NCBI GenBank assembly: GCA_964472655.1
Contig: CAYYLQ010000002.1
Span: 66,295 to 130,294 of the forward strand
Source: an uncultured Nitrospirales bacterium
GTDB lineage: Bacteria; Nitrospirota; Nitrospiria; Nitrospirales; NS-4
Direction: 5' to 3'
Length of the DNA stretch: 64,000 nt
In this document: positions 17,327-39,624 of the stretch, in pieces
Layout of the letters: the number at the start of each line of letters is the position of its first letter
Position numbering within the stretch: the stretch's first letter is position 1
The notes under the pieces: generated by a model
What the model saw: only the letters and a program-made list of their open reading frames with translations
What the model was told of the DNA's origin: nothing
Databases searched by the model: none
Program-made: the position numbers and the translations under genes

Positions 17327-17380
17327 CTCCTTGCCGAAGCGTTAATCTTCAAGCATTCTAATCAAGAAAGCCGAAAAGGG

Positions 17381-18628: not shown

Positions 18629-18675
18629 TTTCCCCCAATAAGCGTTGGATGGCGGTCAGTCGCAGACGAGTTCTA

Positions 18676-22385: not shown

Positions 22386-22460
22386 GGCAGGACCTCAATA
22401 CCTCCTCTTGCTTCGTATCACCGGGTTGCTCCCGCCATATTAAATCAGTATCATCCCGCC

Positions 22461-22922: not shown

Positions 22923-22933
22923 GAGAGACTTAT

Positions 22934-23275: not shown

Positions 23276-23360
23276 AGGAGCCAGAGTGTAGCATACCTCC
23301 GTACGGGTTCCGAGCGGCCGGCATTGACGCTGCTGCCTGCGTGATGATAGAGTCCTCCCT

Positions 23361-24387: not shown

Positions 24388-24777
24388 GTGACTGCCGATA
24401 AATCTCCCTCCTCGGAATTGCGCAATCTTCAAGGTCGGGTCTTCCAGCCGGCTGATGACGGCGAGCGGCGTCAGGCCGTGGAGATTGCGTTCGACTATCG
24501 CGGTGACGTGACGCTGGAGCTGGTCTCCGGCGAGACGATCACGGGGTACATCTTCAACCGGAACGACTCGGCCTCCCCCCCTGTCCTCCAGCTTTTTCCC
24601 AAGGACCAGCCCGGCACCAGGGCGATCCCTTACGCCGACATCGTGACGATCGCTTTTACCGGCGAAGACACCGCCTCAGGGAATTCCTGGGAAGCCTGGG
24701 TGAAGAAGAAAGAATCGGAACGTAAGGCGGAAGCTGACCGTATCAAGGCCGAGGCGCAGGCCCGCGGGCACCTATAA
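24388..24777 (+). CDS. Hypothetical protein (129 aa) with Lys/Glu-rich C-terminal tail
   Basis: GTG start 10 nt after the hpnH stop. No motif recognised. Tail sequence KKKESERKAEADRIKAEAQARG. Confidence 0.45.
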   Translation: MTADKSPSSELRNLQGRVFQPADDGERRQAVEIAFDYRGDVTLELVSGETITGYIFNRNDSASPPVLQLFPKDQPGTRAIPYADIVTIAFTGEDTASGNSWEAWVKKKESERKAEADRIKAEAQARGHL

Positions 24778-24870: not shown

Positions 24871-25506
24871 ATGTTAGATAGGCCGCACTTTGGCTGGGCT
24901 GTTCGGGACATTTTGAACTTGCCGGAAGGGAGACCGTCGTGGGGTCGCGCGGCGGTCTTTTTCGGTCTGGTCGGCCTGATCTGCTGGTCGGAAGCGCTGG
25001 TTCCCGGTGCGGCTTGGGCGACTCACGAAATGGATCACCGGTTCACCATTTCGGGGCGTGTGCGGGATCAAGGCGGCAAACCGATCGGGGATGTCAGGGT
25101 CCATGCGAGGAACCTGCGTGACCAGACGGTTGATCCTGTCACCGGCTACGCGGATGGGTCCGGATTTTATAAGCTGGTCCTTCACCTGCACAACCAGAAT
25201 GCAGGGGACCCCATTCAAATTTCGGTCAAAGACGAACGATCGGGGCTGGACGAAGTCAAGAAAGTCCGGGCTGAGTTTGACCCGACCGACCGGCACACCG
25301 AGCGTCAGGCAAAGGTGGATTTCGGGCCGGAATCGGAACAGTCGGCGGGTGGTTCAGGAGGAGTCGTTGGGACGGAGGACGCATCGAAGCTCTGGCTCTA
25401 TGGAGCGGGAGGAGTCCTCGTTGCGGCGGCAATCGGCGTGGCGGTGGTGCACGCTCGACACCGGCGGGCCGCCGTGCCAGCCAAACGGCGCGGGAAGAAA
25501 CGTTGA
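24871..25506 (+). CDS. Secreted or membrane-anchored protein with a carboxypeptidase-regulatory-like beta-sandwich (tentative)
   Basis: Signal-like segment AAVFFGLVGLICWSEALVPGAAWA. ISGRVRDQGGKPIGDVRVHA is typical of CarboxypepD_reg-like folds. C-terminal TM plus a basic tail. A TTGACA-17-TAGATA promoter candidate (24852-24880) overlaps ATG 24871, so the true start may be TTG 24913 or 24919. Confidence 0.45.
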   Translation: MLDRPHFGWAVRDILNLPEGRPSWGRAAVFFGLVGLICWSEALVPGAAWATHEMDHRFTISGRVRDQGGKPIGDVRVHARNLRDQTVDPVTGYADGSGFYKLVLHLHNQNAGDPIQISVKDERSGLDEVKKVRAEFDPTDRHTERQAKVDFGPESEQSAGGSGGVVGTEDASKLWLYGAGGVLVAAAIGVAVVHARHRRAAVPAKRRGKKR

Positions 25507-25620: not shown

Positions 25621-26178
25621 ATGAAAATTACACGCTTGCTTGGATTGTTGATCATCGGCGGTGTGGCATTTCTTGCGGCCGGTTGCGCGGAAGAGCAGGA
25701 GAGTACGGGGCCGCCTCCGCCCGCGCCGCCCGAATACGCCGACAAGCACATGCCGGCCGGGTGGTGGGCCGATGAGAAAATCATCGCTGAGGGCAAGGAG
25801 ATTTTCGAAGGCGTCAAGAATATCGATGTGAATTGCTCCTCGTGCCACGGCAAGGACGGCAAGCCGGTCAAGGCCGGCGCGCGGGACTTCCGCAAGGGCG
25901 AGCGGATGAAGCTCTACTCCGACAGCGTCTGGTTCTGGCGAATTTCCGAAGGGGTGCCGAACACCAAGATGAAAGCCTGGAAGAGCAAGCTCAGCGAAGA
26001 AGACCGCTGGAAAGCCATGGCCTATGAGCGGACCTTCGGATTGAAGGGGCTGGGTTACGACGTGGCCGCCAAGGACTGGGTTCCGGTCGATCAGTTAGGT
26101 AAAGCAAAACCGGCGGCCGGCGACGGCAAGGCTCCGGCGGCGACGCCCGTGAAGGACGACAAGAAAAAAGGGAAGTAA
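25621..26178 (+). CDS. Monoheme c-type cytochrome, lipoprotein
   Basis: ATG 25621. Lipobox LAAGC. Single CxxCH (CSSCH) with a distal Met candidate (PNTKMKAW). Lys-rich tail. Confidence 0.8.
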   Translation: MKITRLLGLLIIGGVAFLAAGCAEEQESTGPPPPAPPEYADKHMPAGWWADEKIIAEGKEIFEGVKNIDVNCSSCHGKDGKPVKAGARDFRKGERMKLYSDSVWFWRISEGVPNTKMKAWKSKLSEEDRWKAMAYERTFGLKGLGYDVAAKDWVPVDQLGKAKPAAGDGKAPAATPVKDDKKKGK

Positions 26179-26210
26179 GCGCGGTCAATCAGTAAGGGAG
26201 CGGGGAAAGC

Positions 26211-27959
26211 ATGAGGACCTGGCAACGCAGCCTTCTTCTTGTACTGGGGCTTTTGTTAGTGGGAACGGCGGCCTATGCGCAACTCCCTGACCCCAAGCCG
26301 CATGAATTCCCCATCGGAGGAAACCGCGCCGCCGTCTGGGTCGTGGCCCAGCTGCACATCCTGTTCGCAGCGTTCATTCTCGGCGCGCCGATCTTCGTGG
26401 TCGTCAGCGAGATCATCGGATGGAAGAACCGCGACGGGCGCTACGAACGGCTGGCGAAGGAAGTCATCAAGGTCACGGTGATCCTCTACAGCATGACTGC
26501 GCTGACGGGCGGTCTCTTCATTTTCGTGCTGCTCGCTACCTATCCGCAGTTGACGGGCTGGCTGATCACCCACTTCTTCGACGTCTTCGCCATCTGGTAC
26601 CCGCTGCTCTTCATTGCGGAGACAATCGTCCTCTACCTCTATTGGTATACCTGGGACGCGTTGCAGGGGCCGCTCAAGCTCCGTCATATCGCGCTTGGGG
26701 TCCTGCTGAACGTGATCGGGCTGGCGACGCTCATTGTGATTGATGGCCCCACTGCGTTCATGAATACCCCGGTGAAATCCGCGGAGGGGCTGGACCTCAG
26801 AACTTTCATCGAAACCACGGCCACGCTGTGGGACAAGATGAACAATTTCAGCTGGTGGCCCCTAAACATCCACCGGACGGTCGGCAACGTGGTCTTCGGC
26901 GGGTTCATCACCGGCCTGATCGCCGCCTACATGTACATGGCCGCCAAAACAGAAGAGGAACGGGCCTTTTACGACTGGTTCGGGTTTGTGGGCAATCTGA
27001 TCGGCGTCGGCGCGCTGTTGTTGCTGCCCTTCGCCGGCTACCTGCTGGCCTACGAGCTCTGCGACTACGATGCCTCCATCTGTCCCTACATGATGGCCGA
27101 TCAGCTGTCCATGTTTTTCGAGATGCAGGGGGCGATGGTCGGGCTGATTTTCCTGGCGAGCAACTATTACATCTGGCTCAGCATGAAGCGGATCGAAGGG
27201 CTGGAACAGATCCGGATGAGGACCACCACACTGGTCCTTATGGCAAGCATCCCGGTCGTCTTCATGTTGATCTGGACCAAGTGGCCGATACCGGACATCA
27301 TGGCGCTCATTGTCCCGGCCTGCTGGGTCGCGGCGTTCCTGATCGCCGGAAAGTTTCTCATGTGGACGGTCCCGGCGCAGACGTTGGTCAGAGTGGCGTT
27401 CTTGATGGTGATCGTCGGCAACGCGATCTGGATGACGCCGCACGCCTTTGTGGCCACGCAGGCCTTGGCGCCCGATGACGGCTCGTTGAGCCTGCCGCAC
27501 GGCGAGCTCAGTCTGGGGTTCGTCACGGTGGATTGGGGCATGCTGGCGCTTATGCCTGCGAAGAACGCGGCGGCCTTCACCCTCGTCTTCGTCACGATCT
27601 GCAACTACATCCTGTACAACCGGGCCCTGAGTCGGGGGCGGATCGTTTGGGGCAAGATCGATTTCGTGTCCCAATTCGTGCTCGTCTTCCTGGCCTTCAG
27701 CGCAATCTGGACGATGGGCCTGATGGGGGCGGTCCGCGAACTGACCCGGAAATACTTCCACGTGTTCAACCTCCAGTACGATTTCACACCGGAGTCCTTC
27801 ACGCCGACCCTTGCATACTCCAGTTGGGTGATCACCGGAGTCACGCTGACGTTCTACATCGTCGTGAGTTTCGCGATCGTCCTGACGCTACGAACCGGGA
27901 AGGATAAGGCTCATGCCGAGGCGTCGAAAGCGGTCCCGGCCGCCGTGGGCGCAAAGTAA
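26211..27959 (+). CDS. Cytochrome bd-like oxidase subunit I homolog (CydA-like), paralog 1
   Basis: CydA-like landmarks: His in VAQLHILFAAF (compare CydA H19), Glu block FIAETIVLYLYWYTW (compare CydA FFLESTF..FGW), His in NIHRTVGNV (compare H186), and WMTPHAF. It also has an N-terminal signal-like segment and extra C-terminal hydrophobic segments. No cydB is adjacent. Confidence 0.8.
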   Translation: MRTWQRSLLLVLGLLLVGTAAYAQLPDPKPHEFPIGGNRAAVWVVAQLHILFAAFILGAPIFVVVSEIIGWKNRDGRYERLAKEVIKVTVILYSMTALTGGLFIFVLLATYPQLTGWLITHFFDVFAIWYPLLFIAETIVLYLYWYTWDALQGPLKLRHIALGVLLNVIGLATLIVIDGPTAFMNTPVKSAEGLDLRTFIETTATLWDKMNNFSWWPLNIHRTVGNVVFGGFITGLIAAYMYMAAKTEEERAFYDWFGFVGNLIGVGALLLLPFAGYLLAYELCDYDASICPYMMADQLSMFFEMQGAMVGLIFLASNYYIWLSMKRIEGLEQIRMRTTTLVLMASIPVVFMLIWTKWPIPDIMALIVPACWVAAFLIAGKFLMWTVPAQTLVRVAFLMVIVGNAIWMTPHAFVATQALAPDDGSLSLPHGELSLGFVTVDWGMLALMPAKNAAAFTLVFVTICNYILYNRALSRGRIVWGKIDFVSQFVLVFLAFSAIWTMGLMGAVRELTRKYFHVFNLQYDFTPESFTPTLAYSSWVITGVTLTFYIVVSFAIVLTLRTGKDKAHAEASKAVPAAVGAK

Positions 27960-27968
27960 GGGGGAGCC

Positions 27969-28796
27969 ATGGCTGGGGAACGAAGCTTCATCGGAATCCT
28001 GATCAAGCGCCTCTTCCTGGGTGGAGTCGCGGCGGTCGTCCTGTTCCTTTTAGGTCGTTTCGTCTTCCACTTCCCCCTCGTGTTTCAGGTCATGTTCGTT
28101 CTCTACGCAGGGCTGGGCACACTCGTTTTTATCCTTCTGGATGCTCCTGCCGTGTCGCCGTTCAGCGGCGTGAAGGCCTTGGTGGCCCTGGTGGCTTTCT
28201 ACGCGGTGATCTCGGGAGCCTTCATCGCCGGCGCCAACTTCCTGCCGCAGTACGATCCCACGGTCGAAAAAGGGAAGATCGACAAGATCGTGAAGCCGAA
28301 GCTGGCGGCGACCGACAAAGGCAAGATGGATGAACTGCTGAAGCGCAGCGTGGAGCTGAACGCCCAGAGCCAGGCCATCATGAAGCGGCTGGAGGCTCTG
28401 GGCGGCGCGGACAAGCTCAAGGCGGTCGGAGGCGACAAAGGCGGCGGCGGGGCTTCGCCCAAAGCGGCGGCCGGCGATCTGGTCGCGATCGGCAAGGAGC
28501 AGTACGACCTGCAGGAGTGCTACAACTGCCACAAGATCGGCGGCAAAGGCTCGGTCAAGAAGCGCGGTCCGATTCTGGACAACATTGGCAGCCTTATGAA
28601 GCCCGAGGAGATGAAGGAAAAATTGCTGAACCCCCGCGCGTGGATGGCCGATGGATTCGAGAAGGAATACAACAAGAAACTCATGCCGGATAAGTACAAG
28701 GAGCTGATGTCGGACCAGGAGATCGACGCCCTGGTGGCGTATCTGGCCACTTTGAAGGACGCGTCGGTCCAGACTCCCAAACCCATCAAGAAGTAA
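27969..28796 (+). CDS. Membrane-anchored monoheme c-type cytochrome
   Basis: Three N-terminal hydrophobic helices, a linker, then CYNCH with a class I cytochrome c-like C-terminus (DQEIDALVAYLATL). Confidence 0.8.
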   Translation: MAGERSFIGILIKRLFLGGVAAVVLFLLGRFVFHFPLVFQVMFVLYAGLGTLVFILLDAPAVSPFSGVKALVALVAFYAVISGAFIAGANFLPQYDPTVEKGKIDKIVKPKLAATDKGKMDELLKRSVELNAQSQAIMKRLEALGGADKLKAVGGDKGGGGASPKAAAGDLVAIGKEQYDLQECYNCHKIGGKGSVKKRGPILDNIGSLMKPEEMKEKLLNPRAWMADGFEKEYNKKLMPDKYKELMSDQEIDALVAYLATLKDASVQTPKPIKK

Positions 28797-28818
28797 ACGA
28801 GCGCCGGGTACGATCTTC

Positions 28819-29754
28819 ATGGCCAGCGTGCAACCAAAGATCAAATCGAAAGTCCGTTGCCTTGACGGCGAGATCGGAGAAATCGTTCACGTCATTGCCG
28901 ACCCCATCTCGCTCGAAGTCAGCCACATCGTCGTCCGCGCGAACGGAACCCAGCGGCAGGTGCCGGCCAGCTCGATCGCCGTGGTGCGGGACGATGCGGT
29001 CGAGCTGCTCTGCAGCGCGTCCCAGGTGGCGGGCTTTCCTGAACACAAGCCGGAAGACTTCCTGACGTCGAAACAGGTCGAGATCCCGCATCTCGAGAAC
29101 CGCATTCACGTCGACCCCGGCGAGTTGCTCGTGCCCTTTCCGGCGCTTGAGAAGAGCTGCGCCCGGCGGAATTTCTTCGCGGGCTTCATCCATGTCATCG
29201 GCGCGCTCATCGCTCTCCCGCTCGTGTGGCCCGTCCTCCGCTTCATCATGAAGCCCATGTACGCCCCGTACGACAACCACTGGATCAAGATCGGGAACGT
29301 GAGCAAGATCAAGACCGACGACATCGGGGTGCAGTTTATCTTCAAGAAGTCCTTCAAAGACTCGGTGTTGGAACGCGAAGAGGACAAGAACCATTGGGTC
29401 ATCAAGGCCACCCCCGAGGTGCTCAAGAAGATTTATCAGCATGGCGACATGGCCTTTTATGACGAGAAGGGCGACGTCGTGTGGGTCAACAAGCAAACGA
29501 TTCCTTACGTCGCATTTGCGGGCAAGTGCCCCCATCTCGGCTGCGGCTACAAGTGGCGCTCGCATAAAACACGCGGGCAGGTGTTTCTCTGTCCGTGCCA
29601 TCTCAGTATTTACGACGCCGCCGGGACCGTGTTGGACGGGCCGGCCCCGCGTCCTCTGGACGTGCTGCCGATCAAAGTCTCTGCAACGGGGGACATCGAA
29701 GTCATCGACATTGAGTACAAAGCGGGGAAGAAAGAGCAGGTTCGCATCCTTTAG
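28819..29754 (+). CDS. Rieske [2Fe-2S] protein with a long N-terminal cytoplasmic extension
   Basis: Rieske boxes CPHLGC (from nt 29527) and CPCH (29590-29601). TM helix FFAGFIHVIGALIALPLVWPV is preceded by ARRNFF, a twin-arginine-like motif. About 115 aa precede that motif. Confidence 0.9.
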   Translation: MASVQPKIKSKVRCLDGEIGEIVHVIADPISLEVSHIVVRANGTQRQVPASSIAVVRDDAVELLCSASQVAGFPEHKPEDFLTSKQVEIPHLENRIHVDPGELLVPFPALEKSCARRNFFAGFIHVIGALIALPLVWPVLRFIMKPMYAPYDNHWIKIGNVSKIKTDDIGVQFIFKKSFKDSVLEREEDKNHWVIKATPEVLKKIYQHGDMAFYDEKGDVVWVNKQTIPYVAFAGKCPHLGCGYKWRSHKTRGQVFLCPCHLSIYDAAGTVLDGPAPRPLDVLPIKVSATGDIEVIDIEYKAGKKEQVRIL

Positions 29755-30840
29755 ATGAATACGCTGTTGCAAAAGGTCTACGATTTCGTCGACGAGCGGA
29801 TAGACCTGAAGACGCTCGAGGCGAAGATGATGAAGGAGCCGATCAAGGGCGGCTCCCGCTGGGCTTACGTCTTCGGCTCGGTCCTGCTGTTCATCTTCAT
29901 CATGCAGGCCGTGACCGGCGTCCTGCTGATGTTCTACTACATCCCCAGCGCCGACCATGCGTACGCCAGCACCCAGTTCATCATTCACGAGGTGGACTAC
30001 GGCTGGTTCATTCTCAGCTATCACTTCTGGGGCTCGTCGGCCATGGTCGTCATGGTCTTTGCCCACATGTCGCAGGTCTTTCTCTGGGGCGCCTACAAGA
30101 CGCCCCGCGAGATGATCTGGCTGATCGGCCTGGGGCTCTTCGGCATCGTGATGGCCTTCGGCTTCACCGGCTATCTCCTGCCGTGGGATCAGCGCGCCTA
30201 CTGGGCCACGACCGTCGGCGTCGAGATCATGGACAAGACACCCGTTGTGGGCGACTTTTTGGCCCGGTTCCTCAAAGGCGGCCCCACGCCCGGGCAGATG
30301 ACCTTGAGCCGGTTTTTCGTCATCCACGTCATGATTCTGCCGGGCGCCTTGATGGGGCTCGCGGGGCTGCATCTCTTCCTCTTCCGGTCGGCTGGGCCCG
30401 CCGGCCCGTTCCGCGGCACCCCCGAGGAGCTGAAGGCCAAGACCGATTTCTTTTTCCCGCGCCAGGTGTGGAAGGACATCGTGGCCATGGCGGCGGTTTT
30501 CCTGAGCATCTGCTCGCTGGCGCTCATCGAGCCGGTGGTCCTGCTGGAAGAGGCAAAGCCCGACCCCGGCGATTACCATCCGGAGCCCGAGTGGTACTTC
30601 CTGTTCCTGTTCCAGATGCTCCGGTGGAAGGCCTTTTCGGGCGAGTTCGGCCAGTTCGTGGCAGCGACGGCGATTCCCGCCGCATTCATGCTGTTGCTGG
30701 CCGCACTGCCGTTCATCGACCGGAGCCCGGAGCGCAATATCTTTAAACGCCCGATCGCACTGTTGTCCTGGACCGTAGTCATGATCGGGATTCTGGTCCT
30801 GACCGTGTCCGCGATCCTCAACCGCGAGTTCCTCGACTGA
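29755..30840 (+). CDS. Cytochrome b (fused b6 plus subunit IV-like)
   Basis: Heme ligand pairs H-x13-H (HFWGSSAMVVMVFAH) and H-x14-H (HVMILPGALMGLAGLH). Qo-site PEWY motif (PEPEWYFLF). The ATG directly abuts the Rieske stop. Confidence 0.9.
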   Translation: MNTLLQKVYDFVDERIDLKTLEAKMMKEPIKGGSRWAYVFGSVLLFIFIMQAVTGVLLMFYYIPSADHAYASTQFIIHEVDYGWFILSYHFWGSSAMVVMVFAHMSQVFLWGAYKTPREMIWLIGLGLFGIVMAFGFTGYLLPWDQRAYWATTVGVEIMDKTPVVGDFLARFLKGGPTPGQMTLSRFFVIHVMILPGALMGLAGLHLFLFRSAGPAGPFRGTPEELKAKTDFFFPRQVWKDIVAMAAVFLSICSLALIEPVVLLEEAKPDPGDYHPEPEWYFLFLFQMLRWKAFSGEFGQFVAATAIPAAFMLLLAALPFIDRSPERNIFKRPIALLSWTVVMIGILVLTVSAILNREFLD

Positions 30841-30852
30841 CGGAGGCCGGGC

Positions 30853-31701
30853 ATGTCCCATCCCGCGACCGCCATCTCCTCCATCAAGCTGGCCTGGGCC
30901 CTGTCCTGGTCGGCCTTCTGGACGGGGTTCCCGTTCAAGCTGATCGTCGCCCTGCTGCTGCTCGCGGCGCAGATCCACCCTTGGGAGAGCGCGGGGCTCA
31001 TTGCGTTGCTCGCGCTGTCGGCACCGATCGATATCTGGGCGTTGGGCCTGACGGCCCGGACCTTCTTCCTCGAACGGCTGGGGATGGAGATTCGCGGGCC
31101 GGCGGGGATCGCGCTCTGGTGGCAGGGCGCCGTCCTTGGCGCCGTCGTGCTGGGAGCCGCCTATTTCGCGGTTGGTGCCGTCGCTGCTGTCTGCCAGAAA
31201 GCCGCGGCGGCCACATTCGTCGCGGTGAAGAAAGTCCTTCCCGTTCCCATCGCTGAGCAGATCACCATCGAATTGCTGATGTGGGCCGTGCCGGCCACGA
31301 TCGTGCTCATTGTATGTCTCCTGATCTGGCTGCAGCTCTTCGGGTGGCGGATCAAGCGTTTCCTCGTCGCTTCCGGCCAGACCAGCCCGGCCGGCTTGCA
31401 GGAGCGCGTGCGGGAATGGGACGGCTGGCGCGTGCCGGCCGATTCGATGCTGATGCTGGTGTCCTTTACCGCAGTGGCCGTGCTCTTGACCGTCGCGTTC
31501 TGGGTGCTGCTGCCGGTGACGACGCCGCACCGGCACCCGGACTATCCCCCGCCGCAGACGGACACGGCCAAGAAGACGCCCAAGCCGGAGGAGCTGTTGA
31601 AAAAAACAGATACCACCCTCGCCAAGGCCGAAGCGGTCCTGGAGTTGCTGGAAAAGGAAAAAGCCAAAGAGAAGAAAAAGCCCGCGGCCAAGGGGAAATA
31701 G
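30853..31701 (+). CDS. Polytopic membrane protein of unknown function with Lys/Glu-rich C-terminal tail
   Basis: GGAGG (30842-30846) precedes ATG 30853. Several hydrophobic helices. Tail KKTPKPEELLKKTDTTLAKAEAVLELLEKEKAKEKKKPAAKGK. No family recognised. Confidence 0.6.
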   Translation: MSHPATAISSIKLAWALSWSAFWTGFPFKLIVALLLLAAQIHPWESAGLIALLALSAPIDIWALGLTARTFFLERLGMEIRGPAGIALWWQGAVLGAVVLGAAYFAVGAVAAVCQKAAAATFVAVKKVLPVPIAEQITIELLMWAVPATIVLIVCLLIWLQLFGWRIKRFLVASGQTSPAGLQERVREWDGWRVPADSMLMLVSFTAVAVLLTVAFWVLLPVTTPHRHPDYPPPQTDTAKKTPKPEELLKKTDTTLAKAEAVLELLEKEKAKEKKKPAAKGK

Positions 31702-31715
31702 AAGGAGAGAGCGCT

Positions 31716-33548
31716 ATGGAACACATACGGAACCATAAAAATGTGTATGCCTATGCGGCGCTTTTCCTGGTGCTGGCGTTTGTGGTCGCGATGCCGGTGG
31801 GCCTGGCTTGGGCCGAGGAAGCTTCGGCGGGGGCGGCGACGGAGTATCGCGACATCCCTGGCATGGGCAGCCGGAACCTGATCTGGATCATTGCGCAGCA
31901 GCACCTGCTCCTGGCGGGGTTCGTACTGGGCGTGCCGATCTTCGCGTGGGTATGCGAGATCGTCGGCGTCAGGACCGGCGACCAGCGATACGACAAACTG
32001 GCCAAGGAATTTACCAAGCTGCTCACGTCCTCCTACGCCACGACCGCCCTCTTTGGCGGTATTCTCCTGTTCCTGCTGATCGGGCTCTATCCCAAGCTGA
32101 TGTCCTACCTCACGGACGTCTTCTTCCCCTCGTTTCTCGCGTACAGTGTCCTCTTTCTGCTGGAGACGGCGACTCTGTACCTCTACTGGTACGGGTGGGA
32201 TTCGATGCAGGGGAAGCAGAAAGGTTTGCATCTGTTCCTGGGCTTCCTGCTCAACGTCTTCGCATTCTTCATCATGATCATCCCGAACTCCTGGGCGACC
32301 TTCCAGGCCAGCCCGGTCGTGATCGCGGAAGGCAGCATGTGGTCCAAGGCATGGGCGGCGACGTGGAATCCGACCTGGTGGCCGGTGAACGTCCACCGCC
32401 TGATCGCCAACGTCGTGCTGGGCGGCTACATCTGCGGCGCGTACGCGGGGCTCAAGTACTTGATGGCGCAGAACGCGGAAGAGCGCGTGCATTACGACTG
32501 GATGGGGTACGTCGGGAACTTCATCGGCGTGTTCGGCCTGCTGCCGCTGCCCTTCGCCGGCTACTGGCTGATGCGGGAGATCTACCAGTACAACCAGCAG
32601 ATGGGCATCACCCTCATGGGCGGGTTCCTCTCCTGGCTGTTCATCCTGCAGGCCATGCTGATCGGGATTTTATTCGTCGGCTCGAACTATTACTTCTGGC
32701 TGGGGATCATGCATCGGATTCCCGGGTCCGAAGCCAAGTACCGGCGGCCGATCCTGACGATGCTGGTCATCCTGCTCGTGTGTCTGGGGGTCTGGATGAC
32801 CCCGCATTCCCTGGTCGCGAGCCTGGAAGAGGCGCGGAAGATGGGCGGCACCCACCATCCCCTGCTGGGCGTCTTCGGCGTCATGTCCGCGAAGATGACC
32901 GTGGCGAATCTCATGATCCTGGTAACCTTTATGAGCTTCATCATGTACTGGCGGGCCGGCAAGGTGGAGACCGCCGGGTGGGCGAAGGCGGCCAAGGCCG
33001 GCCAGGGCGTGATCCTTGGAATTGCCGTGATCGTCGTCGTCGTGCTGGGTGTGTGGGGCTATTTCGTGCCGGCCATCACGCGGATCAACTATTTTTCCAC
33101 GACCCAGGTGCTGGTCGTGCTCTTCGTTCTGCTGACCATTACGCCCTTGACGGGGCTCCTGATGAAGAGCGCCAAGACGACCACCGAGATGGTGTGGGGC
33201 GTCATGCCGCCGCGATCGGCGTATGCCCTTGTGCTCAACGCGGTCATGGTCATCCTGCTCATGACCCTCATGGGCTATGCGCGGTCGTCGTCGCGGGTCC
33301 ACTGGCACGTGTACGGAGTGATGCAGGACACCTCGCAATATGCCTATTCGCCTGCGCTCGGCTACGCCGCCGCCTTCATGGCCCTGAACACGTTCATGTT
33401 CTGCATGCTGGTCGCGTTCATTTTCTGGGTCGCCTCCCTGGGTGGCGAGAAGAAAGGCGGCGCTCCGGACAAGGCGGCCGCGAAAGCAAAGGGCGCCGCG
33501 TCGCCGGCCGTCGGGACGGCTCCCGCAGCGGCGACCGGCCGTCGCTAG
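31716..33548 (+). CDS. Cytochrome bd-like oxidase subunit I homolog (CydA-like), paralog 2
   Basis: ORF 31281..33548 trimmed to ATG 31716, which follows AGGAGAGA. It shares the CydA-like landmarks of paralog 1 (AQQHLLL, FLLETATLYLYWYGW, NVHRLIANV, WMTPHS). It also has extra His motifs: THHP (32853-32858) and VHWHV (33300-33308). About 13 hydrophobic segments follow the signal-like N-terminus, counted by eye. Confidence 0.8.
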   Translation: MEHIRNHKNVYAYAALFLVLAFVVAMPVGLAWAEEASAGAATEYRDIPGMGSRNLIWIIAQQHLLLAGFVLGVPIFAWVCEIVGVRTGDQRYDKLAKEFTKLLTSSYATTALFGGILLFLLIGLYPKLMSYLTDVFFPSFLAYSVLFLLETATLYLYWYGWDSMQGKQKGLHLFLGFLLNVFAFFIMIIPNSWATFQASPVVIAEGSMWSKAWAATWNPTWWPVNVHRLIANVVLGGYICGAYAGLKYLMAQNAEERVHYDWMGYVGNFIGVFGLLPLPFAGYWLMREIYQYNQQMGITLMGGFLSWLFILQAMLIGILFVGSNYYFWLGIMHRIPGSEAKYRRPILTMLVILLVCLGVWMTPHSLVASLEEARKMGGTHHPLLGVFGVMSAKMTVANLMILVTFMSFIMYWRAGKVETAGWAKAAKAGQGVILGIAVIVVVVLGVWGYFVPAITRINYFSTTQVLVVLFVLLTITPLTGLLMKSAKTTTEMVWGVMPPRSAYALVLNAVMVILLMTLMGYARSSSRVHWHVYGVMQDTSQYAYSPALGYAAAFMALNTFMFCMLVAFIFWVASLGGEKKGGAPDKAAAKAKGAASPAVGTAPAAATGRR

Positions 33549-33560
33549 GGGTTGGTGTCC

Positions 33561-34148
33561 ATGACTGAAGTCCAACTGTTGCAAGCGATTGGGATGGGCG
33601 TGGTCGGTCTGGGGGGGGCGATCCTCCTCTTTGTGCAAGCCCGCTTCGTCCGCGTGGTCGCCTTCGTGCTGATCGTGCTAGGGGGCTTTGCGTTGGTCGC
33701 CCTGGGGGTTCCCCAAATGGCCTCGTTGCCGCCCGCCGTGGAAAAATTCGACGTGGCGTCCATCAAGGAGAAGAAGGACCTGGCGGCGATCGGCCAGAAG
33801 ATCTTCTTCGGCAAGGGCCAGTGCGCGCTGTGTCATACGATCGGCAGCAGCGAGGGCCGGTGTCCTGACCTCAAGGGCGTCGGGTCCAAGCTGACGCGCG
33901 AATTCATTTACGAAAGCCTGACCCAACCCCAGGCGTACGTCTATAAGGACTACGAGCACGTCGGCCAGGCCAAGTTCTTCCCCGCCAAGATGCCTTACAT
34001 CAACAAGAAACCGATCGGCTTGAGCAACAACGAGATCCTCGCGGTCATCGCCTTCCTGCAGAATATGTCGGGTGAGCCGGTGACCATCGAATTGTCCGAG
34101 ATTGAGGCGCCCAGTTCCGTAAGCGCGGAGAGGAGGAAAGGCCTATGA
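33561..34148 (+). CDS. Membrane-anchored monoheme c-type cytochrome
   Basis: Two N-terminal hydrophobic helices, then CALCH. The C-terminus resembles a class I cytochrome c (ILAVIAFLQNM). TTG 33552 and GTG 33555 are alternative starts. Confidence 0.75.
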   Translation: MTEVQLLQAIGMGVVGLGGAILLFVQARFVRVVAFVLIVLGGFALVALGVPQMASLPPAVEKFDVASIKEKKDLAAIGQKIFFGKGQCALCHTIGSSEGRCPDLKGVGSKLTREFIYESLTQPQAYVYKDYEHVGQAKFFPAKMPYINKKPIGLSNNEILAVIAFLQNMSGEPVTIELSEIEAPSSVSAERRKGL

Positions 34149-34867
34149 GAGGGTCCTCACTGGCGATCAAGGGGGCCATTCTGCTGGCGGCGGTGTTCGC
34201 GGTGCTGAAGTTCATCCTGCCGCTCTTTACCGCGCCCTTGCCCATGAGTCTCATCTGGCTGTATTTGTTTTTGGCCACCGTCGGCATCGTCGTGTACGGC
34301 ACGCTCAGTGGCGAGTCCACGGAGCAATTGATGGGTCCCATCTTCCGGTTTCTAAGCGGGGAAGGGTTGAACGGGGTGGCCCGATATGCCCGTCTCACGG
34401 TCCTGGTGCTGTTCCCGCTCCTCGTGGGCTGGGAAACTTACAGCGGCCTCGTGCCCAGCAGCCAGCCGCCCGCCGAGAACCGGACCATCCACCCGGCGCC
34501 TCCCGGAGAGTTCGTGGGGCTGTCCAATCCCCTGCCCAACACGCCGGAGAATGTGATGATGGGAAAGGGGCTCTATTCCGCCTTCTGTTCGCCCTGCCAC
34601 GGCGCGAAGTTCAACGGCAACGGTCCGGCCTCCGACGGGTTCAACCCGCCGCCGGCCAACTTCTCCGATCCCGGCACCATCGCCATGCTCCAGGAGTCCT
34701 ACCTGTTCTGGCGCATCAAAAAGGGCGGGGTGGGGCTGTCGGTCGAGGGCCATCCGTGGAAATCGGCCATGCCGCGCTGGGAAGTGGAACTGCCCGACGA
34801 CTGGATATGGAAGATCATCATGGCGGAATATGCCGGAGCCGGGCAGAAGCCCAGGACGTGGGAGTAA
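34145..34867 (+). CDS. Membrane-anchored monoheme c-type cytochrome
   Basis: ATGA overlap with the upstream gene. Three hydrophobic helices, then CSPCH with distal Met candidates (KSAMPRW). Confidence 0.8.
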   Translation: MRGSSLAIKGAILLAAVFAVLKFILPLFTAPLPMSLIWLYLFLATVGIVVYGTLSGESTEQLMGPIFRFLSGEGLNGVARYARLTVLVLFPLLVGWETYSGLVPSSQPPAENRTIHPAPPGEFVGLSNPLPNTPENVMMGKGLYSAFCSPCHGAKFNGNGPASDGFNPPPANFSDPGTIAMLQESYLFWRIKKGGVGLSVEGHPWKSAMPRWEVELPDDWIWKIIMAEYAGAGQKPRTWE

Positions 34868-34870
34868 GCG

Positions 34871-35821
34871 ATGAGAACGGTTCCATCACGATACGGGATG
34901 GTGGCTCTCTTGGCCGTTGCGGCGGGCCTGCTGTGGGTCGCGTCGGCGCTCTCGCAAGAGACCGTCGTCGTTCGCGCGAAGCTGATCCAAGGCGAGGTGC
35001 CGACGGATCCGTCCGCGTCGATCTGGGGCACGATCCCGGCGACCGAGTTCCCGATGTCACCCCAGGTCCATTGGCAGAAACGCATCGGGTCGGTGACGGT
35101 CAAGTCCATCAAGGTGCGGGCCGTCCATAACAATAAGCAGATCTCGTTCCTCGTCGAATACGCGGATCCGACCCAGGACCCGGCCGACGCCGCGGCGCTG
35201 GAGTTCATGGTGGGCGACAAGAAGGCCCACTTTGCCCACGGACAGCCCATGGGGCAGGTGGAAGGCGGGCCGGTCAACATCTGGTACTGGCGAAACGACG
35301 CGCCGGCGGCTCTGGACATGAGCGCGCAGGGCTTCGGGACGCTGAAGAAGCAGGCTCAGCAGGACGTTCAGGCGAAAGGCGTCTGGAAAGACGAGAAGAC
35401 CAAGATCAAGTTCAAGGAACGCAAGCTGAATCCCCGCAAGGGCGACAAAGGCGAGGTGCTCAAGGATCCGAAGACGGGCGATCCGCTCTTTGATGAAGAG
35501 ACGAAGGTGGTCGAACAGGACGTAAGCGGCGTGTGGCGCATTGTGTTTACCCGCGCGCTGACCACCACCGACAAGGAGGACGTCCAGATTCAGACAGGGA
35601 CGTTCCCAAACGTCGCCTTCGCGGTGTGGGACGGCAAGAAGCTGGAGAGTGGCGATCTGAAGGAGTCGGGCTCGCAAAAGGCTATCACGTCCTGGTGGTA
35701 CATCAACGCGGAGCCGCCGCCGGATTATTCGATTTATTTGTACGGCCTCATGGCGGTCGTGCTGGCCGCGGGGGTGGAGTTCGTCATCATCCGGAAGGTG
35801 AAGAAGGGGCAGCCGGCGTGA
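34871..35821 (+). CDS. EB_dh-type (ethylbenzene dehydrogenase gamma-like) heme-b binding protein with C-terminal membrane anchor, NxrC-like
   Basis: Signal peptide (GMVALLAVAAGLLWVASALS). The soluble domain resembles, by eye, the gamma subunits of type II DMSO-reductase-family enzymes (WGTIPATEFPMSPQVHW, NIWYWRND, VAFAVWDG). C-terminal TM IYLYGLMAVVLAAGVEFVII followed by a basic tail. Confidence 0.6.
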   Translation: MRTVPSRYGMVALLAVAAGLLWVASALSQETVVVRAKLIQGEVPTDPSASIWGTIPATEFPMSPQVHWQKRIGSVTVKSIKVRAVHNNKQISFLVEYADPTQDPADAAALEFMVGDKKAHFAHGQPMGQVEGGPVNIWYWRNDAPAALDMSAQGFGTLKKQAQQDVQAKGVWKDEKTKIKFKERKLNPRKGDKGEVLKDPKTGDPLFDEETKVVEQDVSGVWRIVFTRALTTTDKEDVQIQTGTFPNVAFAVWDGKKLESGDLKESGSQKAITSWWYINAEPPPDYSIYLYGLMAVVLAAGVEFVIIRKVKKGQPA

Positions 35822-36615
35822 AGGGTCAGCGCATTGCAGGAGGGGCCGCCGTCGTGACGGTGGCGGCGTTGGTCGGACTCGCCGGCTGCGGGCTGTTTCA
35901 GGACGAGCATGTGGCGAAGGGCGCGGACCTGTACGCCTATTATTGCTCCCATTGTCACGGGGAGAAAGGGAAGCCGGGCCAGGGCTTTAACTGGAAGCTC
36001 ATGCCAGATCCCAAACCCAAGGACCTGTCCAACAGGGATGAGATGAGCACCCTCAAGGACCAGGAGATCTTCGAGACCATCTCCCGCGACATGAAGGACA
36101 CGACCCCCCAGGTCGGCGACAAGATCGGCGACGACGAGTTCGCCGTTCCGACGATGCCGACGTTCAAGTACACGCTGTCGGAGGAGGAACTCTGGTCGCT
36201 GGTGGCCTTCGTGCGGACGCTCCACGGGACAAAGATAGAGAAGAAGGACTTCGCCGCGCTGAAGAAGGAGCGGCCAAAGGGTTCGCCGATCGCTAAGCCG
36301 ACGGTCACGGCGACGCCGGCCGAAGAGTCCAAGCTGGCGGCGCGCGGCAAGCAGCTCTATTTGAATAAGTACGGCTGCAATGCCTGCCACAAGGTGGGAG
36401 ACACCGGCGGCGAGGTCGGCCCGCCTTTGGACCGGGCGGGGTTCCGCCTGAACGGCCACTGGGTCTATCGGTGGATCAAATACCCGCAGATTATGAAGCC
36501 CCACACCAAGATGCCGAATCTCGGCGTGAGCGACGACGATGCCAAGGCCCTCATGTTCTACCTGAAGACCTTGAACGCGCCGCCGCCGGACAAGCCGCTG
36601 CCGGCTTCGTCCTAA
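35818..36615 (+). CDS. Diheme c-type cytochrome, lipoprotein
   Basis: GTG 35818 overlaps the upstream stop (GTGA) and follows AAGAAGGGG. Lipobox LAGC. Two CxxCH motifs (CSHCH, CNACH). The ORF track extends upstream to 35533 inside the previous gene. Confidence 0.8.
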   Translation: MKGQRIAGGAAVVTVAALVGLAGCGLFQDEHVAKGADLYAYYCSHCHGEKGKPGQGFNWKLMPDPKPKDLSNRDEMSTLKDQEIFETISRDMKDTTPQVGDKIGDDEFAVPTMPTFKYTLSEEELWSLVAFVRTLHGTKIEKKDFAALKKERPKGSPIAKPTVTATPAEESKLAARGKQLYLNKYGCNACHKVGDTGGEVGPPLDRAGFRLNGHWVYRWIKYPQIMKPHTKMPNLGVSDDDAKALMFYLKTLNAPPPDKPLPASS

Positions 36616-36622: not shown

Positions 36623-37501
36623 CTACCTGAGCAAGACCCCGCTCCAGATGCCCGCGAGGATCAGCGCGCCGATCCCGACGTGCTGCTTGAACAAGACGGA
36701 GGCTTGAGCCTGCGACACCCCGCGTCTAAGCTGTCGTGCCTGGGCGACGAAGAGTCCCACAGCCAGCGCCAGCGAGAGGTAAAACGGAAGCGCGAGGCGT
36801 ATCGCCGCGCCGACGAATGCCAGGATTGCCGCCATGGCGAGCAGCGCGCCGCCCACGGCGATCCAGCACCACTCTCCAAAAAAGATGGCCGAGGAACGCA
36901 CGCCGACCCGCCGGTCGTCCTCGATGTCCTGCAGAGCATAGATCGTATCGTACCCGACGGCCCAGCAGACGGTCGCTGCGAAGAGGCCGAACGCCGGCCA
37001 GCCGATCTCGTTCCGCACCGCAGACCAGGCCATGACAGCGCCCCAGCCGAACGCGATGCCGAGGATGGCCTGCGGGAGCGGCATGACTCGCTTCGCGAGC
37101 GGGTAGAGGACGGCCAGGAGCAGGGCGACGGGCGCCAGCGCAATGGTGAATTGGTTGAGTAGGGAGACCAGGCCGGCGGCGGCGGCAATCAGCAACGCGA
37201 AGATTCCCAATGCGGCGTGGGGATGCAGACGTCCCGATGCGAGCGGGCGCTCGCAGGTCCGCTGAACTTGGCGGTCCAGGTCGCGATCCCACCAGTCGTT
37301 GATGACGACGCCGGCGCTCCGCATGACGAAGACGCCCGTGATGAAAATTGCGACGAGCGTGAGCGGCGGACGCCCCTCGCCGGCGAGCGTCAGCGCCCAC
37401 AACGTCGGCAACAGCAGCAAGAACGATCCCGTTTGGTTGCGGAGTCGGATGAGGTCGGCCAGAGTGGACCAGGAGAGCGGCGAACCTCCGAAAACGGCCA
37501 T
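36623..37501 (-). CDS. ubiA: 4-hydroxybenzoate polyprenyltransferase-like UbiA-family prenyltransferase
   Basis: First Asp-rich motif NDWWDRDLDRQVQRTCERPLASG matches UbiA (NDxxDRxxDxxxxRTxxRPLxSG). Second motif YALQDIEDD. Polytopic protein. Confidence 0.8.
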   Translation of the reverse strand: MAVFGGSPLSWSTLADLIRLRNQTGSFLLLLPTLWALTLAGEGRPPLTLVAIFITGVFVMRSAGVVINDWWDRDLDRQVQRTCERPLASGRLHPHAALGIFALLIAAAAGLVSLLNQFTIALAPVALLLAVLYPLAKRVMPLPQAILGIAFGWGAVMAWSAVRNEIGWPAFGLFAATVCWAVGYDTIYALQDIEDDRRVGVRSSAIFFGEWCWIAVGGALLAMAAILAFVGAAIRLALPFYLSLALAVGLFVAQARQLRRGVSQAQASVLFKQHVGIGALILAGIWSGVLLR

Positions 37502-37645: not shown

Positions 37646-39514
37646 ATGTCCTTCCGCGTTCCGGCCCTCCGGCCTCTGATAAGCCTCGTCGTCCTGCTGG
37701 CGGCGCTGGCGGGTTTCGGGTGCGGACAGAAGCTCGTTTTCCCCCGGTTGGAATTCAAATCCGACGAGCCCCAAATACCCAGCATCCCACTGACCGTCCG
37801 TCTCGACATTCCCGACGCGTTCAAACAGACCCAGCTGTTTTACAAGGATTCGTGCGGCGTGTCCCAGGGCATTCCCTTGGGTGAGCGTCTCGCCGAGCAA
37901 GTGAAGGCCGATGCGGCCGGCGTCTTTGAAAAGACCTTTGTGGGCGGCCCGAAGGATCCCGCCGACGCCGTCCTGAGCGCCGCGATCGAGACCAGCGAAC
38001 TTACCCTGAACATTCCGCGCCGTGAGCCCAACGAGTACAAGATGACTGTCTTGGTGCGCTTGCGGATCACGATGACCGATTCCGAGGGCAGGTCGCTGTT
38101 CAACGGCGCGGTCAAGGGCGAAGGGAAATGGAACGTGACCACCGACGGGATTGAATGCACGGTGCGAGGGCTGATGCTGCCTGTGACGGAGGCGCTGGAA
38201 AAGCTTTCGGATCGGACCGTCGAGGAACTGGCCCAATCGGTCAAGGTCCGCGACTGGGCCATGCGGCTGCAGACTCGCAAGGAAATGACGGCCGGCGGCG
38301 TCCAGGCGCCGCCGGCCGGGGCCGGCGATCCTCCCACGCTGAGCTTCCGTGCGTCGCTCGAAGACGAGAACCGCAACCAGATCCTCAACGCGGGTGAGAA
38401 GGTCGTCGTCCGGGTGGAAGTGGCCAACAGCGGTCCGGGCGTGGCGCGAGGAGTGACGGTCGTCCTGTCCGGAACCCCGGATCTGGTGAAGGAATTCACC
38501 AACCCCACGCTGCTCGGTGATCTCCAGCCGGGCGAGAAGAAACAGGCAGTCATTACATCGCTCCTGCCGGCGTCCCTCTCTGATCAACAGGCGGAGCTGC
38601 AGGTGCAGGTGACCGAGGCCGGCGGATTCGGGCCGCCGACTCAGAAACGGTTCGCCGCGTCGGTGAAGTCGAAGGAAGGGTCAGTCGAGACGGTCGAAGT
38701 CCCGTCCAGCGACGTGGACCAGATCCCCCCGCGGGCGTCGGGGTTCGATCGGCGCACCTCCTATGCCGTCGTGGTGGGGATCGGAGGGTACCGCGAGGAA
38801 GGTGTCCCCAAGCTGAAGTACGCCAAGCGCGATGCCGAAGTGGTCGCCAAGCACCTGATGGCGCTGGCGGGGTATGCCCCCGAGAACGTGCGGGTCTTGA
38901 CGAACGAGCGGGCGCTGCTGGTGGATCTCCAGGAAACTTTTGAAGACTGGCTTCCCCGAATGGCCGCGTCGTCTGGCGTCGTGTTCGTCTATCTGGTCGG
39001 CAACGCCGTCCTCAATCCGGAAAACGGCACGATCGTCCTGATGCCCTATGAGGGCCGTCAGGACCAGGCCCGCCGGGGCTACTCTCTGAAGCGGCTGCAG
39101 GAGGTACTGGCGCGCTTGCCCTCCAAACTGAACCTGGTCTTTGCCGACCTCTCGTTTCCGGCCGATAAGACGGGGGCCAGCCCGCGGCCCATTCTGTGGA
39201 ACGCCGGCGGGCCTGATGGGAAAAACCGTACCATCATCGTCGGATCGTCCTCAACGAACGGTCCCAGCCTGTCATTCGATGCGGGGCAGCACGGACTGTT
39301 CACGTATCACTTCCTCAAGGCCGTTCGCGGGCAGGCCGATACCGACAATAACGGCTGGGTGGACGTGGGCGAGATCGTCGCCTATCTCCGGGAGCAGGTG
39401 GCCAAGGGGGCTGTGGCGCTCAAACGGGAACAGGTGCCGGTGGTCAGTCCCGATGTTGCGCCGGACGGCCCGATCGGCACGTATCCGGTCAGCAAAGCCA
39501 AACGGCGGGGTTGA
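37646..39514 (+). CDS. Lipoprotein with a C-terminal caspase-fold (peptidase C14-like) domain lacking the canonical His/Cys dyad
   Basis: Lipobox LAGFGC. The middle region resembles a CARDB-like beta-sandwich (GEKVVVRVEVANSGPGVARGVTVVLSG). C14-like blocks are present (YAVVVGIGGYR...LKYAKRDAEVVAKHL, HGLFTYHFLKAVRGQADTDNNGWVDVGEIVAYL). GHG is replaced by VGNAV (N at 39002-39004). DxC is replaced by ADLS (S at 39152-39154). Confidence 0.7.
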   Translation: MSFRVPALRPLISLVVLLAALAGFGCGQKLVFPRLEFKSDEPQIPSIPLTVRLDIPDAFKQTQLFYKDSCGVSQGIPLGERLAEQVKADAAGVFEKTFVGGPKDPADAVLSAAIETSELTLNIPRREPNEYKMTVLVRLRITMTDSEGRSLFNGAVKGEGKWNVTTDGIECTVRGLMLPVTEALEKLSDRTVEELAQSVKVRDWAMRLQTRKEMTAGGVQAPPAGAGDPPTLSFRASLEDENRNQILNAGEKVVVRVEVANSGPGVARGVTVVLSGTPDLVKEFTNPTLLGDLQPGEKKQAVITSLLPASLSDQQAELQVQVTEAGGFGPPTQKRFAASVKSKEGSVETVEVPSSDVDQIPPRASGFDRRTSYAVVVGIGGYREEGVPKLKYAKRDAEVVAKHLMALAGYAPENVRVLTNERALLVDLQETFEDWLPRMAASSGVVFVYLVGNAVLNPENGTIVLMPYEGRQDQARRGYSLKRLQEVLARLPSKLNLVFADLSFPADKTGASPRPILWNAGGPDGKNRTIIVGSSSTNGPSLSFDAGQHGLFTYHFLKAVRGQADTDNNGWVDVGEIVAYLREQVAKGAVALKREQVPVVSPDVAPDGPIGTYPVSKAKRRG

Positions 39515-39549: not shown

Positions 39550-39624
39550 GCCGGCGTAGCTCAGTGGTAGAGCAGCTGATTCGTAATCAGCAGGTCGGTG
39601 GTTCGATCCCACTCGCCGGCTCCA
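39550..39624 (+). tRNA. tRNA-Thr (anticodon CGT), CCA encoded
   Basis: Hand-folded cloverleaf. Acceptor GCCGGCG/CGCCGGC. D-arm GCTCAGTGGTAGAGC. Anticodon stem GCTGA/TCAGC with loop TTCGTAA. T-loop GGTTCGATCC. Discriminator T followed by CCA. Confidence 0.9.

Follow-up and report, generated by a model that had tools for sequence, protein, structure and literature searches.

The 64,000-nt window analysed here, the whole stretch taken from a contig of an uncultured Nitrospirales bacterium, carries at positions 25621-36615 of its plus strand a respiratory cluster of eleven open reading frames (ORFs), all co-directional and designated g1 to g11. In it, two proteins related to CydA of cytochrome bd stand together with a Rieske/cytochrome b module, five proteins with cytochrome c domains (g1, g3, g8, g9 and g11, with six CxxCH motifs in sum) and a heme-b protein resembling NxrC of the nitrite oxidoreductase (NXR). 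The cluster is the ortholog of NITMOv2_0731-0741 in Nitrospira moscoviensis and of the Nide0901 region in Candidatus Nitrospira defluvii. We regard it, with moderate confidence, as a conserved respiratory hub operon of the Nitrospirales, made of two co-transcribed modules that would both act at the level of cytochrome c.

Gene content and conservation of the cluster

Genes were called on the plus strand, and their starts were picked by ribosome-binding site and by comparison with orthologs; for g7 the mechanical ORF begins at 31281, and the start consistent with both is the ATG at 31716. From g1 to g11 the intergenic distances are 32, 9, 22, 0, 12, 14, 12, -4, 3 and -4 nt, with a direct abutment of g4 and g5, an ATGA overlap between g8 and g9 and a GTGA overlap between g10 and g11. 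An earlier reading of the DNA without database searches, the sequence-only reading, had described eleven co-directional genes with gaps of -4 to 32 nt, and the ORF calls and spacing bear this out, as the Pfam and NCBIfam profile searches do for the domain content that it had listed. It had also stated that neither CydA-like gene has a cydB or cydX partner: among the window ORFs scanned against Pfam/NCBIfam there was no match to cydB (Cyt_bd_oxida_II), to a heme-copper oxidase or to nxrAB-like genes, and because all gaps are of 32 nt or less there is no room for cydX inside the cluster.

The first gene, g1 (25621-26178, +; ortholog NITMOv2_0731), encodes a monoheme cytochrome c matched by Pfam Cytochrome_CBB3/Cytochrom_C and is a probable lipoprotein; its lipobox (A-A-G-C22) is loose, the CxxCH motif lies at residue 72, and Cys22 and C72/C75/H76 are invariant in 50 orthologs. 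It is followed by g2 (26211-27959, +; ortholog NITMOv2_0732), a CydA-like protein of the OR-N1 type ('bd-like_1') with about 14 transmembrane (TM) helices, and by g3 (27969-28796, +; ortholog NITMOv2_0733), a membrane-anchored monoheme cytochrome c with about three N-terminal helices and CxxCH at residue 184. The Rieske [2Fe-2S] protein g4 (28819-29754, +; ortholog NITMOv2_0734), identified by its Pfam match, has one TM helix and the motifs CPHLGC at 237 and CPCH at 258. The cytochrome b g5 (29755-30840, +) is a fusion, b6-type in its N-terminal and subunit-IV-like in its C-terminal part, and matches Cytochrome_B with 162 bits as well as Cytochrom_B_C; the H-x13-H and H-x14-H pairs read earlier are found at H90/H104 and H191/H206, and the PEWY motif at 278. 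The motif residues of g4 and g5 are conserved at 95% or more, and the missed NCBIfam equivalog cutoffs indicate that this Rieske/cytochrome b module is a divergent member of its kind. Residues 1-110 of g4 (28819-29150) form a conserved N-terminal cytoplasmic extension, whose assignment as PRC-barrel-like rests on a weak, sub-threshold DUF2171/PRC-barrel match at residues 12-70; a search of this domain against PDB sequences gave nothing significant, and NITMOv2_0734 is annotated 'modulated with PRC-barrel' (PMC6606698). The last gene of this half, g6 (30853-31701, +), encodes an orphan membrane protein that matches no Pfam or NCBIfam family and has only 322 homologs, all unnamed. Its AlphaFold model (predicted local distance difference test, pLDDT, 80) shows five long helices and a charged C-terminal helix, and comparison of the model with PDB folds returned no match (best E 1.2).

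The second half opens with g7 (31716-33548, +), the CydA-like protein of the OR-N2 type ('bd-like_2', NIDE0901-like) with 14 TM helices, which is the proposed terminal oxidase. Two membrane-anchored monoheme cytochromes c follow, g8 (33561-34148, +; ortholog NITMOv2_0738; CxxCH at residue 88) and g9 (34145-34867, +; ortholog NITMOv2_0739; CxxCH at residue 148), then the heme-b protein g10 (34871-35821, +; ortholog NITMOv2_0740, 'alt_NxrC_1'), which is EbdC/NxrC-like and periplasmic, with a signal peptide and a C-terminal TM helix, and finally g11 (35818-36615, +; ortholog NITMOv2_0741), a diheme cytochrome c lipoprotein with the lipobox L-A-G-C24 and CxxCH at residues 43 and 187. The division of the cytochromes c into anchored and lipidated types, as first described, holds, with the corrections that the g1 lipobox is looser than had been supposed and that the single TM anchors of g3, g8 and g9 are in fact two to three hydrophobic segments. 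The cytochrome c domains and the heme-b domain are all predicted to be periplasmic.

For g10 the Pfam EB_dh score was 80.6 bits (cutoff 33.3), and the protein matches 2ivf_C (E 3e-12) and the Kuenenia NxrC 7b04_C (E 6e-9). Its Met127 is the equivalent of EbdC Met108, and by alignment to Kuenenia NxrC its Lys270 is the likely axial ligand of heme b; each of these two residues is kept in 71 of 72 orthologs. The score against NCBIfam DMSO_red_II_gam (107.5 bits) is below the cutoff of 169.85, and since no nxrAB-like gene was matched in the window either, g10 is best described as an 'alternative' NxrC-like protein, as it was named in PMC6606698. With the NXR clusters of Kuenenia, Nitrospina and Nitrospira, and with EbdC (2IVF) and Kuenenia NxrC (7B04), the present locus shares an EB_dh heme-b domain with Met/Lys ligands, c-type cytochromes and a 14-TM bd-like protein; it differs in that no nxrAB lies nearby and in that g10 is anchored at its C-terminus and has no fused heme-c domains.

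A scan with g7 of one genome per species gave 80 loci, all in Nitrospirota, among them those of N. moscoviensis (L032; NZ_CP011801, 699-710 kb) and Ca. N. defluvii (L034; FP929003). All eleven proteins were then compared with the 80 loci by tblastn, and gene order was counted in the 49 loci long enough to hold the cluster. In this synteny comparison across the Nitrospirota, 47 of the 49 carry g1 to g11 complete and in the same order, which places the arrangement well above chance. The tight spacing is kept as well, with a median of 0 nt between the Rieske and cytochrome b genes and of -4 nt between the NxrC-like and diheme cytochrome c genes (64 loci for the latter), and so are the flanks, which run from HpnH through two small genes and the cluster to a convergent UbiA-family gene and a caspase-like gene. 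Median ortholog identity is highest for the cytochrome b g5 (84%), followed by OR-N2 g7 (81%), and lowest for the fastest-evolving g6 (37%); the slow evolution of g5 and g7 is as expected for catalytic cores. The best match of g7 is 95% identical (L004), its orthologs in N. defluvii and N. moscoviensis are 81-82% identical, and public assemblies hold proteins identical to g2 and to g6.

In one of the two exceptions (L042) the OR-N1 gene is there but broken by frameshifts: at 4350-6321 of that locus it runs through at least two overlapping frames of a metagenome-assembled genome, either as an assembly indel artefact or as a pseudogene. A cluster without OR-N1 was therefore rejected for this locus. 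The other exception (L036; CP070743.1, Nitrospirota bin371, a 2.46-Mb genome) has at 9896-14626 only g7 to g10, which encode OR-N2, a pair of cytochromes c and the NxrC-like protein, and a gene for a monoheme cytochrome c. OR-N1, Rieske and cytochrome b genes were not found adjacent to this half, so the OR-N2 half of the operon is a separable module. A unit of the same g7-g10 composition, likewise stand-alone, was named 'TO_1' in the work on Ca. Manganitrophus, where it comprises a bd-like protein of clade I, a periplasmic cytochrome b and two cytochromes c; the window has this unit joined with the OR-N1/Rieske/cytochrome b module and with a diheme cytochrome c.

Locus coordinates and the supplementary tables of Mundinger 2019 give a gene-by-gene match to NITMOv2_0731-0741. 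The eleven genes, their order, orientation and flanks are the same in N. moscoviensis and N. defluvii, with identities from 37% (g6) to 84% (cytochrome b); the species differ, and there are slight differences in some gene starts and in how long g10 and g11 are. Mundinger 2019 covers this region as complex III copy 1 (CIII_1), bd-like_1, bd-like_2 ('CIV'), alt_NxrC_1 and cytochromes c, describes it as strongly transcribed, and puts forward a supercomplex of complexes III and IV to which soluble NXR may dock via the alternative NxrC (PMC6606698). Murali, Gennis and Hemp 2021 defined the OR-N1 and OR-N2 subfamilies of the cytochrome bd superfamily, with 14 helices of which only the first four are shared with CydA, tabulated their ligand equivalents, and found OR-N1 typically with petA/B/D, OR-N2 with cytochromes c and an EbdC homolog, and some bacteria with a single operon for both. 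From genome comparisons, papers on Nitrospinota (2024) and Nitrospirales (2025) suggested that OR-N1 and OR-N2 make up a cytochrome c oxidase of the CydAA' type, whose subunit composition, function and O2 affinity both describe as untested (PMC10839748, PMC12342949). The wiring first suggested for the bd-like proteins, to cytochromes c, complex III and an NxrC-like subunit, is thus in line with published work, whereas the novelty claimed for the operon-level architecture did not survive, as the same cluster and the supercomplex and NXR-docking idea are in Mundinger 2019 and the gene contexts in Murali 2021. Architecture and interpretation are already known, and the biochemistry alone is uncharacterised: no structural or biochemical characterisation of a Nitrospira oxidase was found in the literature, in agreement with the sequence-only reading and with PMC6606698, PMC10839748 and PMC12342949.

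The two CydA-like proteins

Both proteins match PF01654 (Cyt_bd_oxida_I; cutoff 26.2 bits), g2 with 61.3 bits and g7 with 72.0 bits, over profile positions 3-240 of 418 only, and their PDB matches are CydA chains (5doq_A, 9r2g_A). They are 36% identical paralogs, in keeping with the 'up to 40%' given by Murali 2021, and were assigned to OR-N1 and OR-N2 by NIDE0901-like orthology and residue patterns rather than by the authors' classifier hidden Markov models. The COX1 family gave no match in either protein (Pfam/NCBIfam).

Residue equivalents were taken from HMMER alignment to solved CydA chains and from conservation in 78 OR-N2 and 54 OR-N1 orthologs. The active-site heme ligand His19 of E. 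coli corresponds to H63 of g7 (H21 in G. thermodenitrificans) and H49 of g2, and is invariant; the proton-channel residue Glu107 (E108 in G. thermodenitrificans) is kept as E150 and E137, and His126 as H172 and H159; the heme b558 ligand His186 is kept, and invariant, as H227 and H221. All four are invariant in OR-N2, and the mapping agrees with Supplementary Table 6 of Murali 2021. The CydA-like proteins thus do not lack heme-ligand equivalents, although the three-heme site as a whole is only partly preserved. The region of Met393 is not alignable; the conserved M390 and M394 of g7, at matching membrane depth, are candidates for this ligand, and Murali 2021 (Table S6) lists N434/M430, with Met as the candidate. 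Further invariant histidines are specific to OR-N2 (H259, H380, H381 and H529) or shared with OR-N1 (H364 and H531).

Hydrophobic segments in excess of those of canonical CydA, together with a signal-like N-terminus, had been noted earlier; there are about 14 helices in each protein, and the signal-like part is an extra helix. For g7 a 14-helix model with both termini inside places 26 Lys and Arg residues inside and 10 outside, and owing to the predicted extra helix, helix 1 enters the membrane from the periplasm, which this topology requires. In the model H63, H227 and M390/M394 lie at similar depth toward the periplasm and H364, H380, H381, H529 and H531 in periplasmic loops, while E81, H172, E150 and Y143 are in the cytoplasmic half and H259 is on the cytoplasmic side. 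This sidedness fits periplasmic electron entry and cytoplasmic proton uptake. As for g2, residues 284-305, between two of its roughly 14 hydrophobic segments, hold C284, D285, D287, C291, D297 and E304, all OR-N1-specific and invariant; in the topology model of g7 the equivalent loop is periplasmic, and a disulfide between C284 and C291 is conceivable, as is binding of a cation by the acidic patch. H121 is likewise invariant in OR-N1 and absent from OR-N2.

Compared with canonical cytochrome bd (CydAB with CydX/S/H), g2 and g7 have homologous N-terminal helices that carry the His of the active site, the His of b558 and one Glu of the proton channel, but no CydB partner, Q-loop or quinol site, the presumed donor being cytochrome c; their helices number 14 instead of 9, one of them added at the N-terminus, the equivalent of Glu99 is lost, and that of Glu445 is Ser in the table of Murali 2021. 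With the published OR-N1 and OR-N2 subfamilies they share the 14 TM helices, the missing Q-loop, the H19/E107/H126/H186 equivalents, the change of Glu99 to Tyr, and the gene contexts, OR-N1 beside petA/petB-D and OR-N2 beside cytochromes c and an EbdC homolog. A CydB partner borrowed from elsewhere in the genome is unlikely given that in N. moscoviensis canonical cydAB is expressed at 1.4-76 reads per kilobase per million mapped reads (RPKM), against 816-1166 for the bd-like genes (PMC6606698).

Probable extent of the transcription unit and neighbouring genes

The eleven genes of the proposed operon stand as described, and its extent was probably drawn one gene too short, as expression and synteny both point to a twelfth gene, u1 (24871-25506, +), directly 5' of g1. 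In N. moscoviensis, HpnH and the next gene have RPKM values of 331 and 292, followed by 1815 for NITMOv2_0730, the u1 ortholog, and by 2077, 1166, 1264, 935, 691, no value, 816, 500, 944, 725 and 1044 for 0731-0741 (PMC6606698). This step in expression at NITMOv2_0730 fits one unit that starts at u1, and the transcription unit of the window probably begins there (24871), one gene before g1. In addition, u1 is found directly 5' of g1 in every related locus that reaches that far.

The u1 product is a 211-aa membrane-tethered periplasmic protein with a signal/anchor N-terminus and a C-terminal TM helix with a basic tail. Two pairs of histidines are invariant, His52/His56 in x-H-E-x-D-H-R-F, right behind the predicted cleavage site, and His105/His107 in an H-L-H-N-x-N-x-G-D motif. 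The periplasmic part appears to be a beta-sandwich by a weak Pfam match to CarboxypepD_reg (E 7e-5, below cutoff); past this carboxypeptidase-regulatory-like signal no curated Pfam/NCBIfam family matched, and in a profile search against PDB sequences the best match, with an E value of 1.2, was not significant. Family members are few, 204 among 1.84 billion cluster representatives, and retain the motifs. We suggest that the operon may truly begin with u1 and that the u1 product may bind metal in an accessory role.

Between HpnH and u1 lies u2 (24388-24777, +), which encodes 129 aa with no family match and a conserved AFDYRGD...GYxFNR...FTGEDTA motif; it holds this position in 47 loci, and its N. 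moscoviensis ortholog is expressed about 6-fold below the cluster. Further upstream, the region 5767-24377 contains genes of hopanoid and isoprenoid metabolism, namely a squalene-hopene cyclase gene (5767-7932), a PNP_UDP_1 phosphorylase-superfamily gene (7939-8706), Dxs (13794-15692), IspG (15695-16870) and HpnH (23361-24377), with Mla lipid-transport genes interspersed. On the other side, a convergent UbiA-family gene (36623-37501, -), syntenic in 62 loci, ends 7 nt from the end of g11. A role for its product as heme O synthase was considered and rejected, the scores being 272.8 bits to 4-hydroxybenzoate octaprenyltransferase, just short of the cutoff of 275.45, and 75.8 bits to cyoE/ctaB, which makes it a prenyltransferase of the quinone-biosynthesis (4-hydroxybenzoate) type. 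Beyond it, 37646-39514 (+) encodes a 622-aa protein with a caspase (Peptidase_C14) domain that is conserved across Nitrospirales. The only Rfam/ARAGORN matches in the window are tRNA-Cys(GCA) at 16927-17002 and tRNA-Thr(CGT) at 39550-39624; these searches found no riboswitch or other structured RNA near the cluster.

Proposed electron flow and competing readings

From the gene content, ligand conservation, topology, synteny and separability of modules described above, together with the co-expression reported in published papers, we infer the following path of electrons. Since the nitrite/nitrate couple is too positive for direct quinone reduction, electrons would enter at the level of cytochrome c. 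Module B (g7-g11), with OR-N2, two anchored cytochromes c, the anchored EbdC/NxrC-like heme-b protein and the diheme lipoprotein, would most likely receive them by way of the heme-b protein and the c-hemes, the donor being the nitrite oxidoreductase of the periplasm (NxrAB with soluble NxrC). The c-hemes would pass them to the hemes near the periplasmic face of OR-N2, where O2 would be reduced with protons from the cytoplasm. On this path module B would act as a cytochrome c:O2 oxidoreductase. Module A, which comprises g1-g6 and perhaps u1, with its cytochromes c, OR-N1, PRC-barrel Rieske protein, b6/subunit-IV cytochrome b and orphan membrane protein, would couple the shared cytochrome c pool to the quinone pool through the Rieske/cytochrome b proteins. 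When the cells grow lithoautotrophically on nitrite, the proton-motive force would drive it mainly in the reverse direction, and it would supply low-potential electrons for CO2 fixation. OR-N1 might serve as a partner of OR-N2 or, fed by complex III, as a second oxidase. The two-module view is supported by the stand-alone module B in the L036 genome and in Manganitrophus. Should the products associate, they would resemble, as a functional analogy only, obligate complex III-IV supercomplexes such as the actinobacterial bcc-aa3, in which complex III and the oxidase are wired by membrane-bound c-hemes with no soluble carrier; here, however, the proposed oxidase is not of the heme-copper type.

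Several points weigh against this hub reading. The equivalent of the other proton-channel residue, E. coli Glu99, is an invariant Tyr in both paralogs (Y143 in g7, Y130 in g2), and that of the heme b595 ligand Glu445 is Ser in OR-N1 and OR-N2 (Murali 2021, Table S6), so that the di-heme b595/d site of the canonical enzyme is kept only in part. Alignment to CydA extends over the first five or so helices, the C-terminal half being unalignable, and the AlphaFold model of g7, made with a 35-sequence alignment of OR-N2 and OR-N1, has a mean pLDDT of 47 and is unusable for a three-dimensional check of the His cluster. No nxrAB gene was matched among the scanned ORFs of the window. The co-expression data come from another species, N. 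moscoviensis, and do not prove a single transcript. Scans for sigma-70 promoters (1 against 2.7 expected) and intrinsic terminators (11 against 11) were at chance, and matches to the sigma-54 consensus were below chance, with none upstream of the cluster; the promoter and terminator scans are uninformative, and the transcription unit is therefore not definable from sequence. Related clusters with bd-like and alternative NxrC proteins also occur in strictly anaerobic anammox bacteria, and a role in reverse electron transport similar to alternative complex III was proposed (PMC3578206). Finally, published work describes every OR-N protein as uncharacterised by biochemistry, spectroscopy or structure (PMC10839748, PMC12342949).

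That there are 'two oxidases', as first read, is likewise not established, since published readings comprise one CydAA'-type enzyme, two enzymes, or a non-oxidase like alternative complex III. The strongest competitor, which we hold possible though doubtful, is a single oxidase in which OR-N1 (g2) and OR-N2 (g7) form a CydAA'-type heterodimer, with OR-N1 in the structural place of CydB and an obligate complex III-IV supercomplex of cytochromes c and the Rieske/cytochrome b unit around it. Such a pair was hypothesised in PMC12342949 and PMC10839748 and the supercomplex in PMC6606698, and archaeal CydAA' is a precedent (Murali 2021). The paralogy of g2 and g7 within one operon, the similar expression levels of their orthologs and their joint occurrence in 48 of the 49 loci with room, the frameshifted L042 copy included, are all in its favour. 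On the other hand, four genes separate g2 from g7, and OR-N1 keeps its own H19, H126 and H186 equivalents and so looks like a heme protein, not a heme-free scaffold. The OR-N2 gene of L036 has no OR-N1 gene beside it, and OR-N2 often occurs without another CydA-like gene (Murali 2021).

A bolder version of the oxidase idea, which we consider unlikely, takes OR-N2 as a convergent heme-plus-metal (CuB-like) O2 reductase on a bd scaffold, with H380, H381 and H529 (together with H364 and H531) as the metal site, u1 as a factor for metal delivery or assembly, and the twelve genes as a self-contained operon for a nitrite-to-oxygen supercomplex. It draws on u1, which has four invariant His, is membrane-tethered and has a co-expressed ortholog in N. 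moscoviensis; what recalls heme-copper oxidases in OR-N2 is only its His pattern (H259, HH380/381, HxH529/531). The link to u1 is the sole new element, as the CuB idea itself is from Lucker et al. 2010, as relayed by later papers; Mundinger 2019 credits that work with bd-like_2 (Nide0901) as a novel terminal oxidase with heme b and copper sites (PMC6606698).

It is also quite improbable, in our view, that the bd-like proteins are not oxidases at all and serve in reverse electron transport, as heme-bearing modules of the membrane to which NXR is anchored and which, like alternative complex III, exchange electrons with quinone, O2 being reduced elsewhere. Such a role was proposed by Lucker 2013 for a related bd-like/alt-NxrC cluster (PMC3578206) and by Mundinger 2019 for bd-like_3 (PMC6606698), and it would suit the homologous clusters of anaerobic anammox bacteria, the extra helices in place of the Q-loop (both PMC3578206) and the loss of the equivalents of Glu99 and, by the table of Murali 2021, Glu445. 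However, the quinol-binding residues are not kept (PMC3578206), the same operon already has a dedicated Rieske/cytochrome b quinone module, and the active-site His and the residues of the cytoplasmic proton path (the E107 and H126 equivalents) are invariant. Moreover, according to published work most Nitrospira have no canonical heme-copper oxidase and some cultivated strains (N. lenta, Ca. N. nitrosa) have no other oxidase, and canonical bd oxidases are barely expressed in aerobically grown N. moscoviensis. Lastly, a hitherto unrecognised operon architecture in which two independent CydB-less oxidases are fused with complex III is very improbable: the gene content is exactly as described, but cluster and interpretation are published and the cluster is present in essentially every sampled Nitrospirales genome.

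Nitrite oxidation in soils, waters and wastewater plants is dominated by Nitrospira. Because, according to published work, most of these bacteria have no heme-copper oxidase, the question of how they conserve energy and reduce O2 has stood since 2010, and the present cluster is the leading candidate for the terminal oxidase that is missing in nitrite oxidisers. The window adds to this picture a probable twelfth gene, evidence that the modules are separable and a predicted sidedness for the conserved residues, and is otherwise a further instance of the published cluster. The oxidase role, if true, would in addition account for the energy that this key guild of the nitrogen cycle gains and for its affinity to oxygen.

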